64,000 nt of DNA from the NCBI RefSeq assembly GCF_046105845.1, contig NZ_CP151004.1; one strand, given 5' to 3'. The first letter of the stretch is position 1. Every line of letters begins with the position of its first letter. Shown in pieces: positions 32,225 to 37,727 of this stretch. The notes beneath the pieces were generated by a model, which was given only the letters and a program-made list of their open reading frames with translations, had not been told where the DNA came from and searched no databases. Position numbers and translations under genes: made by a program. Origin of the DNA: Escherichia coli (GTDB taxonomy: Bacteria; Pseudomonadota; Gammaproteobacteria; Enterobacterales; Enterobacteriaceae).

Positions 32225-34888
32225 TTAAGCCAGACGCGGGTTAACTTTATCTGCATCGATGTTGAATTTGGCGATTGCGTCAGCAACCACTTTCTTATCG
32301 ATTTCGCCACGTTTAGCCAGTTCGCCCAGCGCCGCAACCACGACATAAGAAGCATCAACTTCGAAGTGGTGACGCAGGTTCTCACGGCTGTCGGAACGAC
32401 CGAAGCCATCAGTACCCAGTACGCGGTAGTCGTCAGCCGGTACGTAAGTACGGACCTGCTCAGCGAACAGTTTCATATAGTCGGTAGATGCCACTGCCGG
32501 AGCATCGTTCATCACCTGAGCGATATACGGAACGCGCGGAGTTTCCAGCGGGTGCAGCATGTTCCAGCGTTCACAATCCTGACCATCACGCGCCAGTTCG
32601 GTGAAGGAGGTCACGCTATAAACGTCAGAACCTACGCCGTAATCTTTCGCCAGGATCTCTGCTGCTTCACGGACGTGACGCAGGATAGAACCGGAGCCGA
32701 GCAGCTGAACTTTACCTTTGCTACCTTCAATGGTTTCGAGTTTGTAGATACCTTTACGGATACCTTCCTCAGCACCTTCCGGCATTGCCGGCATGTGGTA
32801 GTTTTCGTTCAGCGTAGTGATGTAGTAGTAAACGTTCTCTTGTTTTTCACCGTACATACGCTCCAGACCGTCATGCATGATGACAGCAACTTCGTAAGCG
32901 TAAGCAGGGTCGTAAGAGATACAGTTCGGGATAGTCAGCGACTGAATGTGGCTGTGACCATCTTCGTGCTGCAGACCTTCACCGTTCAGGGTGGTACGAC
33001 CGGAAGTACCGCCGATCAGGAAGCCACGCGCTTGCTGGTCGCCAGCCGCCCAGCACAGATCGCCGATACGCTGGAAGCCGAACATCGAGTAATAGATGTA
33101 GAACGGAATCATCGGCAGATTGTTGGTGCTGTAAGAGGTCGCCGCTGCCAGCCAGGAACAACCTGCGCCCAGCTCGTTGATCCCTTCCTGCAGAATCTGA
33201 CCTTTCTCGTCTTCTTTATAGTAAGCAACCTGCTCGCGGTCCTGCGGGGTGTACTGCTGACCGTTCGGGCTGTAAATACCAATCTGACGGAACAGACCTT
33301 CCATACCGAAAGTACGCGCTTCGTCGGCGATGATCGGTACCAGACGATCTTTGATCGACTTGTTCTTCAGCATTACGTTCAGGGCACGAACGAAAGCGAT
33401 AGTGGTAGAGATCTCTTTGCTCTGCTCTTCCAGCAGCGCGCCGAAGTCTTGCAGGCTCGGCAGCTCAAGCTTCTCGGTGAAGTTCGGCTGACGGCTTGGC
33501 AGATAACCGTGCAGTTTCTGACGCTGAGCGTGCAGATAGGTATGCTCTTCAGAACCTTCCGGGAAGGTGATGTACGGCAGTTTTTCGATATCAGCATCAG
33601 ACACCGGCACATTGAAACGGTCGCGGATGTGACGCACGCCGTCCATGTTCATTTTCTTAACCTGGTGCGCGATGTTTTTACCTTCAGCCGCGTCGCCCAT
33701 GCCGTAACCTTTAATGGTATGAGCAAGGATCACCGTCGCTTTGCCTTTGGTTTCCTGCGCTTTCTTGAATGCAGCGTAGATTTTCTTCGGATCGTGACCA
33801 CCACGGTTCAGCGCCCAGATCTGCTCGTCAGTCCAGTCTGCAACCAGTGCTGCGGTTTCAGGATATTTACCGAAGAAGTGCTCACGAACGTACGCACCAT
33901 CTTTCGATTTGAAGGTCTGGTAGTCGCCGTCAACGGTTTCGTTCATCAGCTGGATCAGTTTACCGCTGGTATCTTTACGCAGCAGTTCATCCCAACGGCT
34001 ACCCCACATTACTTTGATCACGTTCCAGCCAGCACCTTCGAAGATGCCTTCCAGTTCGTTGATGATCTTGCCGTTACCGGTGACCGGGCCGTCAAGACGC
34101 TGCAGGTTACAGTTGATAACGAAGACCAGGTTATCCAGTTTTTCACGGGTAGCGATGGTGATCGCACCTTTGGATTCCGGTTCGTCCATTTCACCGTCGC
34201 CGAGGAACGCGTAAACGGTCTGTTTAGAGGTATCTTTCAGGCCACGGTGTTCCAGATATTTCAGGAATTTAGCCTGGTAAATAGCACCAATCGGACCCAG
34301 ACCCATAGATACGGTCGGGAACTGCCAGAATTCCGGCATCAGTTTCGGGTGCGGATAGGAAGAGAGGCCATTGCCGTGAACTTCCTGACGGAAGTTATCC
34401 AGCTGCTCCTGAGTCAGACGACCTTCCAGGAAAGCACGTGCGTAAACGCCCGGGGAGATGTGGCCCTGGAAGTAAACCAGGTCGCCGCCATCCTGCTCGT
34501 TGCGTGCACGGAAGAAGTGGTTAAAGCACACATCATAAATGGTTGCGGAAGACTGGAAGGACGCCATGTGGCCGCCCAGTTCGAGGTCTTTTTTCGACGC
34601 ACGCAGAACCGTCATGATGGCGTTCCAGCGGATAGCTGAACGAATACGGCGTTCCAGTTCCAGATTACCCGGATACTCCGGTTGTTCTTCAACGGGGATG
34701 GTGTTGATGTAGTTGCTGATACCGGTGCCTGCGGCTACGTTGACACCGCCTTTGCGGGCTTCAGCAAGCAGTTGGTCGATCAGATACTGAGCACGCTCAA
34801 CACCTTCTTCACGGATGACCGATTCGATCGCCTGGAGCCAGTCGCGAGTTTCGATCGGATCCACGTCATTTGGGAAACGTTCTGACAT
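32225..34888 (-). CDS. aceE: Pyruvate dehydrogenase E1 component
   Basis: 887-aa ORF recognised as AceE ([29 protein letters not shown]...). Confidence 0.97.
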
Positions 34889-35048
34889 GGGTTATTCCTT
34901 ATCTATCTAATAACGTTGAGTTTTCTGGAACCTGTCCCATTGAACTCTCGCCGGAAAGCTCAATAAGACAGGTTCTACGTTTAGTTGCCGCGCTTTTATA
35001 TGCGCTTGATTTACAACATCTTCTGGATAATTTTTACCAGAAAAATCA

Positions 35049-35813
35049 CTAATTCTTTCGTTGCTCCAGACGACGCAGAGAACGCTCACGGCGACTCTCT
35101 TCGCGGCTTCTGTCGAGCAAAATTTCTTCGATAAAGGCCAGATGGCGATGCGATGCTTCGCGCGCTTCTTCCGGCTTACCGGCCATAATCGCTTCAAATA
35201 TGCGGGTGCGGTGACTACTCACCAGCGGCAGCATCTCGCGACGCGAATAGAGCAATTCGAAGTTCTGGCGGACATTCTGGGCCAACATCGGCTCCATACA
35301 CCTTAGCAGATGAAGCAGAACCACATTGTGGGCCGCTTCGGTGACGGCAATCTGATACTGGAGTACGGCATTTGATTCCGCGTCCAGATCGCCAGACTGC
35401 TGCGCCAGCTCTATGGCGTGGTGGAGTTCACGGATGCGTTCCTTGTCTTCATCGGTACTACGCAGCGCGGCGTAATAAGCGGCGATACCTTCCAGGGCGT
35501 GTCGTGTTTCGAGCAAGTCATACTGTGATTCAGGATGGTCGGAGAGCAGCTCCACCAGCGGATCGCTGAAGCTTTGCCATAGGCTGCTCTGGACAAAAGT
35601 GCCGCCACCCTGGCGACGAAGCAACAAGCCCTTCGCTTCGAGACGTTGAATCGCCTCACGCAAGGAGGGACGGGAGACGTCAAACTGTTTTGCCAGTTCG
35701 CGTTCCGGTGGGAGTTTTTCGCCCGGGCGGAGAGTGCCTTCGAGGATCAAAAACTCCAGTTGCTGCTCAATCACATCGGAGAGTTTTGGTTGGCGGATTT
35801 TGCTGTAGGCCAT
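35049..35813 (-). CDS. pdhR: GntR-family pyruvate dehydrogenase complex repressor
   Basis: ORF 35049..35846; ATG at 35813 gives 254 aa ([21 protein letters not shown]...). Confidence 0.95.
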
Positions 35814-35844
35814 GAGTTCCTGTCTTAAGCCACTTGCCGAAGTC

Positions 35845-35861
35845 AATTGGTCTTACCAATT
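35845..35861 (-). promoter_or_regulatory. PdhR operator (AATTGGTAAGACCAATT) in the pdhR promoter/leader
   Basis: 17-bp palindrome matching the PdhR box core ATTGGT-N3-ACCAAT, 32 bp upstream of the pdhR ATG. Confidence 0.85.
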
Positions 35862-36242
35862 TCATGTCTGTGACGCTAAAGTAACAAAGTATTCACCTTA
35901 TGTCCATACAGGTTTTGATTGAAATCATGAAACTGTGCACATTTTAACAACTTGACATATATAACGTTTCAAAGTTGTAACCATGCACAAATGTAGACTT
36001 TACGTAGGAAAGGGATTTTTTAACGATTATTAAACTATAAAAATCCGAATTGAACCGATTCACTTACCAATTTATCGATTTTTAATTCAAAAATATTGAA
36101 TTTATATTCATTTTGCATATTGAGGGGATTTGAGGCTGACCTTTACAAACGGTTCCTTTTTAAGCAACTCATCTTCAACCATGCATAAAGCGGGTGCATT
36201 CGCTGCCGCATACCATTATTCTTTATCTGACGGAAGTCATTT

Positions 36243-36283
36243 TGTAACAATTCAAAAGTCTTTAATGTAAACAAATCAATACA
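36243..36283 (+). promoter_or_regulatory. Candidate TyrR boxes upstream of aroP (TGTAAC-N6-AAAGTC and TGTAAA-N6-AATACA)
   Basis: Two partial matches to TGTAAA-N6-TTTACA, 70-110 bp upstream of the aroP ATG. Confidence 0.4.
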
Positions 36284-36353
36284 AAAAACGGAATTGCAAA
36301 CTTACACACGCATCACTGCGTAGATCAAAAAAACAATCACCGCACGAGGTTTC

Positions 36354-37727
36354 ATGATGGAAGGTCAACAGCACGGCGAGCAGCTAAAGCGCGGCCTTAA
36401 AAACCGCCACATACAGCTTATCGCGCTGGGAGGCGCGATAGGGACAGGGCTATTCCTGGGTAGCGCCTCCGTAATACAGTCCGCAGGGCCAGGGATTATC
36501 CTGGGTTACGCCATTGCTGGTTTTATCGCCTTTCTGATCATGCGTCAGCTGGGTGAAATGGTGGTCGAAGAACCTGTCGCAGGCTCCTTTAGCCACTTTG
36601 CTTATAAATACTGGGGCAGTTTTGCCGGTTTCGCCTCTGGCTGGAACTACTGGGTACTGTACGTTTTAGTTGCCATGGCAGAGCTGACTGCCGTGGGTAA
36701 ATACATTCAGTTCTGGTATCCGGAAATCCCAACCTGGGTTTCTGCCGCCGTGTTCTTTGTGGTGATCAACGCCATTAACCTGACCAACGTAAAAGTGTTT
36801 GGCGAGATGGAGTTCTGGTTTGCCATTATCAAAGTTATCGCGGTGGTAGCGATGATCATCTTCGGCGGCTGGCTGCTATTCAGCGGCAACGGCGGCCCGC
36901 AGGCGAGCGTTAGCAACCTGTGGGATCAGGGTGGTTTCCTGCCGCACGGCTTCACCGGGCTGGTGATGATGATGGCGATTATCATGTTCTCTTTCGGTGG
37001 TCTGGAACTGGTGGGCATCACCGCAGCAGAAGCAGATAACCCGGAGCAAAGTATTCCAAAAGCGACTAACCAGGTTATCTACCGCATCCTGATTTTCTAC
37101 ATTGGTTCGTTAGCCGTTCTGCTCTCGCTGATGCCGTGGACCCGCGTTACTGCTGATACCAGTCCGTTTGTACTGATCTTCCACGAATTGGGCGATACCT
37201 TTGTGGCGAATGCGCTGAACATCGTGGTACTGACTGCTGCGCTCTCCGTGTACAACAGCTGCGTATATTGCAACAGCCGTATGCTGTTTGGTCTGGCACA
37301 ACAGGGCAACGCGCCAAAAGCGCTGGCGTCTGTCGATAAACGCGGCGTACCAGTCAACACCATTCTGGTGTCTGCGCTGGTTACGGCATTGTGCGTGCTG
37401 ATTAACTACCTTGCACCGGAATCCGCATTCGGCCTGTTAATGGCGCTGGTGGTATCTGCACTGGTAATCAACTGGGCGATGATTAGCCTGGCGCATATGA
37501 AATTCCGTCGCGCCAAGCAGGAACAAGGCGTGGTAACTCGCTTCCCTGCTCTGCTTTATCCGCTGGGTAACTGGATCTGCCTGCTGTTTATGGCGGCGGT
37601 ATTGGTGATTATGCTGATGACCCCAGGAATGGCGATTTCGGTATACCTGATCCCGGTATGGCTGATCGTGTTAGGTATCGGCTATCTGTTTAAAGAGAAA
37701 ACCGCCAAAGCCGTAAAAGCGCATTAA
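36354..37727 (+). CDS. aroP: Aromatic amino acid:H+ symporter
   Basis: 457-aa multi-TM ORF recognised as AroP (MMEGQQHGEQLKRGLKNRHIQLIALGGAIGTGLFLG...). Confidence 0.96.
   Translation: MMEGQQHGEQLKRGLKNRHIQLIALGGAIGTGLFLGSASVIQSAGPGIILGYAIAGFIAFLIMRQLGEMVVEEPVAGSFSHFAYKYWGSFAGFASGWNYWVLYVLVAMAELTAVGKYIQFWYPEIPTWVSAAVFFVVINAINLTNVKVFGEMEFWFAIIKVIAVVAMIIFGGWLLFSGNGGPQASVSNLWDQGGFLPHGFTGLVMMMAIIMFSFGGLELVGITAAEADNPEQSIPKATNQVIYRILIFYIGSLAVLLSLMPWTRVTADTSPFVLIFHELGDTFVANALNIVVLTAALSVYNSCVYCNSRMLFGLAQQGNAPKALASVDKRGVPVNTILVSALVTALCVLINYLAPESAFGLLMALVVSALVINWAMISLAHMKFRRAKQEQGVVTRFPALLYPLGNWICLLFMAAVLVIMLMTPGMAISVYLIPVWLIVLGIGYLFKEKTAKAVKAH

Follow-up and report, generated by a model that had tools for sequence, protein, structure and literature searches.

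The pdh promoter of Escherichia coli K-12, from which the pdhR-aceEF-lpd operon is transcribed, and its PdhR operator are well-documented elements (Quail, Haydon and Guest 1994; Quail and Guest 1995; Anzai et al. 2020, PMC7660256). Transcription of pdhR starts at an A located 58 nt from the ATG, and the promoter has been printed as the string GTATGGACATAAGGTGAATACTTTGTTACTTTAGCGTCA (PMC2759082). The K-12 PdhR box, at genome position 122052, was scored 14/14 and is the highest peak obtained for PdhR by genomic SELEX (PMC7660256). An FNR site has been published at -50.5, and an FNR ChIP-seq peak lies at K-12 position 121,987. ArcA ChIP-seq identified two binding regions upstream of pdhR, CRP has been reported at the -35 region of the pdh promoter, and Cra has been reported as a repressor of the operon. 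As quoted in PMC10572922, the regulators given for the pdhR promoter are PdhR, FNR, ArcA, CRP, Cra and BtsR in RegulonDB and PdhR, FNR, CRP, FruR and NarP in RegPrecise.

The adjacent gene, aroP, is controlled by a system of three promoters, P1, P2 and P3 (Wang, Yang and Pittard 1997-98, via PMC7142922). In the account given there, P1 overlaps P3 and is shut off through the activation of P3 by TyrR at the strong box. The -10 hexamer of P3 is conserved in all sequences, and mutating it cuts activity 2- to 3-fold; mutations in the -35 have no effect, and the UP sequences of P3 overlap the -10 of P2 (PMC7142922, including the legend to its Fig. 2). When a 403-bp fragment was shortened stepwise from its aroP end, the 315-bp product lacked only the weak TyrR box and the 274-bp product lacked both boxes (PMC7142922). 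The aroP-pdhR spacer is also where the pathogenicity island PAIusp resides; P3 drives usp, and H-NS represses it (Rihtar et al. 2020, PMC7142922).

A shared control region between pdhR and aroP

The window analyzed here, 64,000 nt of E. coli DNA given as one strand, is in reversed orientation relative to K-12, with aceE and pdhR on the minus strand and aroP, followed by ampE, on the plus strand. Between the pdhR ATG (35813, minus strand) and the aroP ATG (36354, plus strand) lies a spacer of 540 bp, 35814 to 36353. Its K-12 counterpart (121,552 to 122,091) also is 540 bp long and contains no annotated feature in the K-12 RefSeq record. Positions 35700 to 36500 were matched in 5,423 of 5,426 complete E. 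coli genomes, with a top match of 99.8% (strain NY1601), and identity to K-12 over these 801 bp was about 96%. The 200 bp of the spacer proximal to pdhR are 100% identical to K-12. The first K-12 difference is at 35982, and differences cluster at 36074 to 36141 and around 36225 to 36290; they comprise 15 of 111 positions in the core region plus several around P3 and the TyrR boxes. Given these sequence differences, the quantitative behavior of the window allele may differ from that of K-12.

A preliminary description of this DNA had recognized the divergent control region of pdhR and aroP, in which the PdhR operator is intact and aroP is controlled by TyrR. That identification is correct, as is its characterization of the spacer as AT rich: the G+C content is 22 to 35% over 35860 to 36140, compared with about 55% in the flanking genes. 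It had also judged the regulation to be mostly known, and indeed the operator, the TyrR boxes, the P3 "decoy" promoter and the usp island site all have been published. The control region is already known and offers little new biology. What the analysis adds is a corrected position for the weak TyrR box, the recognition that the spacer is both ancestral and modular, and the observation that the extra features of the preliminary description sit in its unconstrained part.

We consider it very probable that the spacer is a shared control region for two divergent transcription units and that it is comprised of two conserved promoter/operator modules and a dispensable AT-rich core. The presence, uniqueness, positions and conservation of the elements, and the existence of mutually exclusive alleles, were computed here; for binding and regulatory effects we rely on published work with K-12, whose sequence is near-identical.

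Spacer length and conservation across species

When one genome per species was scanned on the basis of PdhR, 80 loci were returned; in essentially all, aroP is located upstream of pdhR in divergent orientation. The spacer measures 524 to 653 bp in 37 species, from Escherichia to Serratia, which indicates that its length is ancestral. The spacer had been called unusually long. This is true against a typical E. coli spacer but not for this locus, where such lengths are normal. In Klebsiella and Raoultella (four loci), about 110 extra bases of aroP leader, situated between the weak TyrR box and the ribosome-binding site and aligned at 36320 to 36335, account for spacers of 640 to 653 bp.

Segment identities were calculated as the mean of 34 non-Escherichia species against the window, with pdhR third codon positions (0.48 to 0.67) as the neutral benchmark. 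Measured against this benchmark, the values in Table 1 delineate two constrained modules and an unconstrained core. The pdhR module (35814 to 36062) carries the PdhR site, the FNR site and a Cra-like box; the TyrR boxes and the divergent promoter P3 belong to the aroP module (36142 to 36353). What had been regarded as one long stretch of remaining spacer is in fact two strongly conserved regulatory modules split by a core of about 80 bp.

Two of the loci returned by the scan were unusual in other respects. A contig labeled Chryseobacterium sp. 18061 carries a 93% identical PdhR and aroP in the enterobacterial arrangement, and this assembly is probably contaminated or mislabeled. In Citrobacter amalonaticus AUH_CA_2023_1, a frameshift seems to divide aroP into two open reading frames (ORFs) of 138 and 406 amino acids, reflecting either a pseudogene or an assembly error.

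Table 1. Features of the aroP-pdhR region in window coordinates, with mean segment identity
Feature	Positions	Strand	Sequence and basis	Mean identity
pdhR CDS, 254 aa	35049..35813	-	ORF list; RefSeq annotation of NY1601 (99.8% identical) and K-12	
pdhR 5' untranslated leader	35814..35871	-	published transcription start (A at 35871) to ATG	0.81 (leader + operator)
PdhR operator	35845..35861	.	AATTGGTAAGACCAATT; +11 to +27 of pdh promoter, 32 bp from A of pdhR ATG	0.81 (leader + operator)
pdh core promoter	35878..35906	-	TGGACA (35906-35901), 17-nt spacer, TACTTT (35883-35878); hexamers placed by distance to published start	0.93 (core promoter plus FNR site)
FNR site	35915..35928	.	TTGATtgaaATCAt; centre -50.5; 9/10 match to TTGAT-N4-ATCAA	0.93 (core promoter plus FNR site)
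Conserved far-upstream pdhR block	35931..36003	.	ATTTTAACAAC, TTACAGAAATAACGTTTCA, ATGTAAC, TTGCACAAATG; alignment	0.75
Segment distal to far-upstream block	36004..36062			0.58
Cra/FruR-like palindrome	36051..36062	.	TGAACCGATTCA; consensus match, conservation	
10-bp copy of operator right half	36063..36072	+	CTTACCAATT; exact repeat; first 10 bp of core	
Hypervariable AT-rich core, 79 bp; place of PAIusp in usp-positive strains	36063..36141	.	conservation, junctions	0.41 (36063-36140)
Conserved aroP-distal block	36142..36201	.	TTTACAAAyGGTTTCTTTTTA ... CATAAAGCrGGTGCATTC; alignment; P3 transcribed start and P1 upstream/-35 region	0.73 (36141-36224)
P3 -10 hexamer	36210..36215	-	TGGTAT; PMC7142922; conserved as TACCAYTATTCT in alignment	
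P3 -35, literature assigned	36235..36240	-	ATGACT (K-12 AAGACT); via S. bongori primer and stated 2- and 3-base differences	
Segment proximal to strong TyrR box	36225..36265			0.43
Strong TyrR box	36266..36283	.	TGTAAACAAATCAATACA; 10/12 match to TGTAAA-N6-TTTACA, G-N14-C present	0.83
Weak TyrR box	36289..36306	.	CGGAATTGCAAACTTACA; 8/12 match, G-N14-C kept; aroP side	0.79
aroP leader	36307..36353	+	conserved ACACGAGGTTT, Shine-Dalgarno GAGG at 36346-36349; alignment	
aroP CDS, 457 aa	36354..37727	+	ORF list; RefSeq annotation of NY1601 and K-12	

The PdhR operator and the pdh promoter

The PdhR box agrees with the 17-bp palindrome definition, AATTGGTnnnACCAATT, at all 14 specified bases. Its 15-bp core, ATTGGTnnnACCAAT (35846 to 35860), is the sole match in the window, even when one mismatch is allowed (0.13 expected by chance), and the operator arms are invariant in 38 of 38 aligned sequences, with variation only at the central three bases. 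The intact palindrome reported 32 bp upstream of pdhR is therefore confirmed: it is perfect, has no second match in the window and is identical to the K-12 box.

The published promoter string GTATGGACATAAGGTGAATACTTTGTTACTTTAGCGTCA maps to positions 35909 down to 35871 on the minus strand. This mapping fixes the transcription start at 35871 and places the operator at +11 to +27. From the distance to this start we infer the positions of the two hexamers, and the resulting core promoter block has a mean identity of 93% across the 34 non-Escherichia species. A consensus promoter scan missed the pdh promoter because its -10 matches at only 3 of 6 positions. The window's 17-bp box, leader and promoter are identical to those of K-12; the 58-nt distance from start to ATG and the FNR site at -50.5 also are shared, and no differences were seen in the pdh module.

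The PdhR box overlaps the transcribed start of the pdh promoter, which is consistent with repression through a polymerase block. On this model, RNA polymerase would initiate at 35871 from a weak promoter, TGGACA-17-TACTTT, and a PdhR dimer on the palindrome would block transcription until pyruvate releases PdhR. Both the binding of PdhR and its release by pyruvate have been published for K-12, where the box has the identical sequence.

Other regulator sites in the pdhR module

The center of the FNR site in the window equals the published position of -50.5, the FNR ChIP-seq peak corresponds to window position 35918, and the alignment revealed that the site is almost invariant across genera. Further upstream, the block at 35931 to 36003 is more conserved than pdhR third codon positions (0.75 versus about 0.55), and it probably holds sites of ArcA and other global regulators.

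The sequence TGAACCGATTCA at the distal end of the module is the single match in the window to TGAAnCGnTTCA and has the top Cra-like score within 34700 to 36450. It agrees with the published Cra consensus, gcTGAAtCGaTTCAgc, at 11 of 12 core positions, and it is kept as CTGAA(C/G)CG(A/T)TTCA in almost all genera and also in usp-positive E. coli. Consensus match and conservation together suggest that this box is probably bound by Cra. The published wording for the Cra site, "downstream of two promoters," conflicts with a box at about -185; a weaker Cra-like sequence is present inside pdhR at 35645 to 35660.

Binding of FNR at -50.5, of ArcA in two regions, of CRP near -35 and, probably, of Cra at TGAACCGATTCA would layer redox and carbon source control over pyruvate control. 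At window positions 36001 to 36016, the alignment shows in most genera what we take to be a good sequence of the NarL/NarP 7-2-7 type, such as TACTCAC-AA-AGAGGTA. This sequence is degenerate in both the window allele and K-12 (TACGTAG-GA-AAGGGAT).

A second copy of the operator half-site

The preliminary description had noted an additional ACCAAT half-site near 36064. An exact 10-bp repeat of the right half of the operator, CTTACCAATT, is indeed present there, but it is unconserved, and genomic SELEX with PdhR gives no sign of a second site. It is conceivable that the half-site serves as an auxiliary PdhR site, looping the DNA or coupling pdhR control to aroP or P3, and several observations could be read in this way. 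The window contains two copies of CTTACCAATT against 0.08 expected, a number reached in none of 100 shuffled sequences. Between the second copy and the corresponding half of the main operator there are 211 bp, or some 20 turns of the helix. Usp-negative Escherichia retain this copy, among them K-12, Escherichia sp. E1V33 and strain SCPM, and E. albertii has it with a single difference. In addition, the K-12 PdhR SELEX-chip peak (121,966) is shifted by 86 bp from the box, toward the half-site. However, PdhR sites are palindromes and this is a lone half-site without an inverted partner; the repeat, moreover, was noticed after the fact. Its per-column identity across genera is 20 to 60%, and CTTACCAATT is restricted to Escherichia alleles without usp, being absent from other genera and from usp-positive E. 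coli. We therefore regard an auxiliary site as highly improbable. The shifted SELEX peak was considered as evidence for a second PdhR site and rejected, since offsets of 80 to 170 bp between peak and motif are common in the same table (PMC7660256).

TyrR boxes and promoters of the aroP module

The strong TyrR box is conserved in 37 enterobacterial species and in 38 of 38 aligned sequences, and its G-N14-C pair is retained in nearly all of them. The weak box, separated from it by 5 bp (23 bp center to center), is likewise conserved across genera, Serratia included. Loose TyrR-like matches, with up to three mismatches, are not enriched in the window (18 found versus 25.5 expected).

Two TGTAA-type boxes had been proposed at 36243 to 36283. 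The one at 36266 to 36283 is genuine, but the other, at 36243 to 36260 (TGTAACAATTCAAAAGTC, plus strand), fails the TyrR definition and is unconserved. Its first half matches at 5 of 6 positions and its second half at none of 6, position 17 is T and not C, and the surrounding region, with a mean identity of 0.43, falls under the neutral benchmark. From its position we infer that 36243 to 36260 is an AT-rich stretch at the place of the P3 UP sequence and the P2 -10.

The location of the published weak box was derived from the deletion endpoints. In Salmonella sequences with the same primer sites, the 88-bp removal ends precisely where the weak box begins, and the 129-bp removal ends at precisely 6 nt from the P3 -35, the distance expected from the primer. 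These endpoints fit 36289 to 36306, and thus the published weak TyrR box is the box on the aroP side.

The window shares with the aroP system described in PMC7142922 the order of P3 -10, strong box, 5 bp and weak box on the aroP side. The -35 and -10 of P3 are separated by 19 nt. Compared with the aroP region of K-12, the window has TGTAAACAAATCAATACA where K-12 has ...ATTAATACA, the P3 -35 is ATGACT in place of AAGACT, and several changes fall in the AT-rich stretch at 36243 to 36265. By analogy with the published system, TyrR with an aromatic amino acid would occupy the strong box (36266 to 36283) and, cooperatively, the weak box (36289 to 36306). Bound TyrR would then recruit RNA polymerase to P3 (-10 at 36210 to 36215), and polymerase at P3 would be excluded from the overlapping P1, so that aroP would be repressed.

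The aroP module also contains a conserved block distal to aroP, located downstream of the P3 start and upstream of the aroP promoters. Within it, the strongly conserved sub-blocks are at 36142 to 36163 and 36184 to 36201; CATAAAGCrGGTGCATTC is kept out to Serratia, and TTTACAAAyGGTTTCTTTTTA is kept across the sampled Enterobacteriaceae. That these approximately 60 bp, beyond the -35/UP element of P1, are the site of a regulator not yet linked to aroP or P3 is a tentative suggestion that we consider rather unlikely to be right; alternatively, the block may be a conserved fourth promoter.

Search for a small RNA or small protein in the spacer

An unannotated product of the spacer was also considered, either a small RNA transcribed from P3 (from about 36203 toward pdhR) or a small protein encoded by an 18-codon ORF at 36199 to 36143. 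P3 is a real promoter firing into the spacer, no intrinsic terminator lies downstream of it, and an ATG is found about 5 nt from the deduced P3 start. However, the region of the 18-codon ORF shows indels and nonperiodic substitutions across genera. In usp-positive strains, a few bases separate the island junction from the TTACAA element that is downstream of it at the 3' end of the ORF, and the segment there is too diverged to align. P3 in K-12 has been described as very weak and transcriptionally nonproductive (PMC7142922), and the K-12 RefSeq annotation is blank at this place. We accordingly attach very little probability to an unannotated small RNA or small protein and retain the reading of the spacer as a control region.

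Screens of the sequence gave the same picture. There was no Rfam match within 35814 to 36353, even at E values up to 1, and folding of 35872 to 36204 on either strand was no better than that of shuffled sequences (z = -0.86 and -0.24). The promoter/terminator scan found no terminator-like sites in the spacer. It found no promoters there either, which is a weak negative, since the experimentally mapped pdh promoter also was missed. Thus, 35814 to 36353 contains neither an RNA family match nor a stable conserved structure with its own terminator, as would be expected of a small RNA gene. The 18-codon ORF (36199 to 36143) and a 39-amino-acid ORF (36063 to 35944) were rejected as coding sequences, as both run through poorly conserved, indel-bearing columns. 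Outside the aroP-pdhR spacer, in the pdhR-aceE spacer, a full-length match to tp2 (RF02030), the only hit of the Rfam search, was found at 34891 to 35004 on the plus strand, opposite to the operon, with 103 bits against a gathering score of 50.

The variable core and the usp island

Among E. coli genomes, the core is hypervariable. Over 36040 to 36150 (111 bp), 3,950 of 4,364 genomes were only 80 to 90% identical to the window, and at least 99% identity to the core allele of the window was found in only 133 of the 4,364. The 801-bp query was split into two places in 1,060 genomes, and these carry PAIusp between pdhR and aroP. usp was found in 1,059 of the 5,426 complete genomes and the core of the window in 4,364. 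These numbers sum to the 5,423 genomes in which the locus was matched, indicating that the two alleles are mutually exclusive. In CFT073 and U12A, for example, usp bears the annotation tssD, and immunity genes and orphan nuclease fragments come after it, on the pdhR strand.

A first reading of the BLAST matches, in which the island replaced 36004 to 36183, was discarded, as the junctions retain the Cra box and the TTACAA element in diverged form. Their retention in usp-positive strains places the island within the core. The window carries the "empty" allele of the described insertion site (PMC7142922), as does K-12: it has a 79-bp core where the island of about 4.7 kb sits in the PAIusp-bearing allele, and no usp or immunity ORFs were found in the 540-bp spacer. 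The core at 36063 to 36141 holds no conserved information; in about one-fifth of E. coli strains it is the site of the usp genotoxin island, and there P3 drives usp. These observations agree with PMC7142922.

The exact coincidence of the island with the core raises the question of whether the AT-rich core is the scar of an ancestral usp-type island that has decayed in lineages now without one. Its hypervariability within E. coli would fit such an origin, as would the finding that Superficieibacter sp. 1612_C1 has, at this very site, a decayed usp that is frameshifted and lacks both the nuclease domain and the immunity genes. On the other hand, a variable segment of similar length is present in every genus examined, with or without an island. 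The core does show weak collinear similarity to the sequence beside the Cra box in a usp-positive strain, but its score of 31 was reached by 6 of 300 shuffled sequences, and this similarity at the left junction is better explained by a diverged flank than by island remains. No similarity of the core was detected to the right junction or to usp or the immunity genes. We consider a scar unlikely. The either-or relationship of core and usp across 5,423 genomes and the decayed usp in another genus may interest students of how islands without an integrase enter conserved regulatory spacers.

The spacer of Superficieibacter sp. 1612_C1 (locus L059, 1020 to 3000) is about 2 kb long and contains a broken usp homologue. 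Its two ORFs are 76 to 78% identical to Usp residues 1 to 185 and 224 to 386 and contain Hcp and Pyocin_S domains; a DNase domain and immunity genes were not found in this spacer. The genus is not mentioned in the usp paper (PMC7142922).

In the usp-positive strain U12A (locus L004, 7290 to 7365 and 12040 to 12404), the flanks of the island are strongly diverged from the usp-negative allele. The flank on the aroP side is 85% identical to that allele, with the divergence extending into aroP, and the block distal to pdhR is similar to those of Salmonella and Citrobacter, among other things in having a better NarL/NarP-type 7-2-7 sequence. Judged from these alignments, the usp island appears to have arrived together with its flanks. 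In CFT073 (locus L003, 7257 to 8561), an IS3-family element is present inside the conserved block, at the equivalent of about 35955 and some 85 bp upstream of the pdhR start, and this insertion parts the pdhR promoter from its far-upstream conserved sites.
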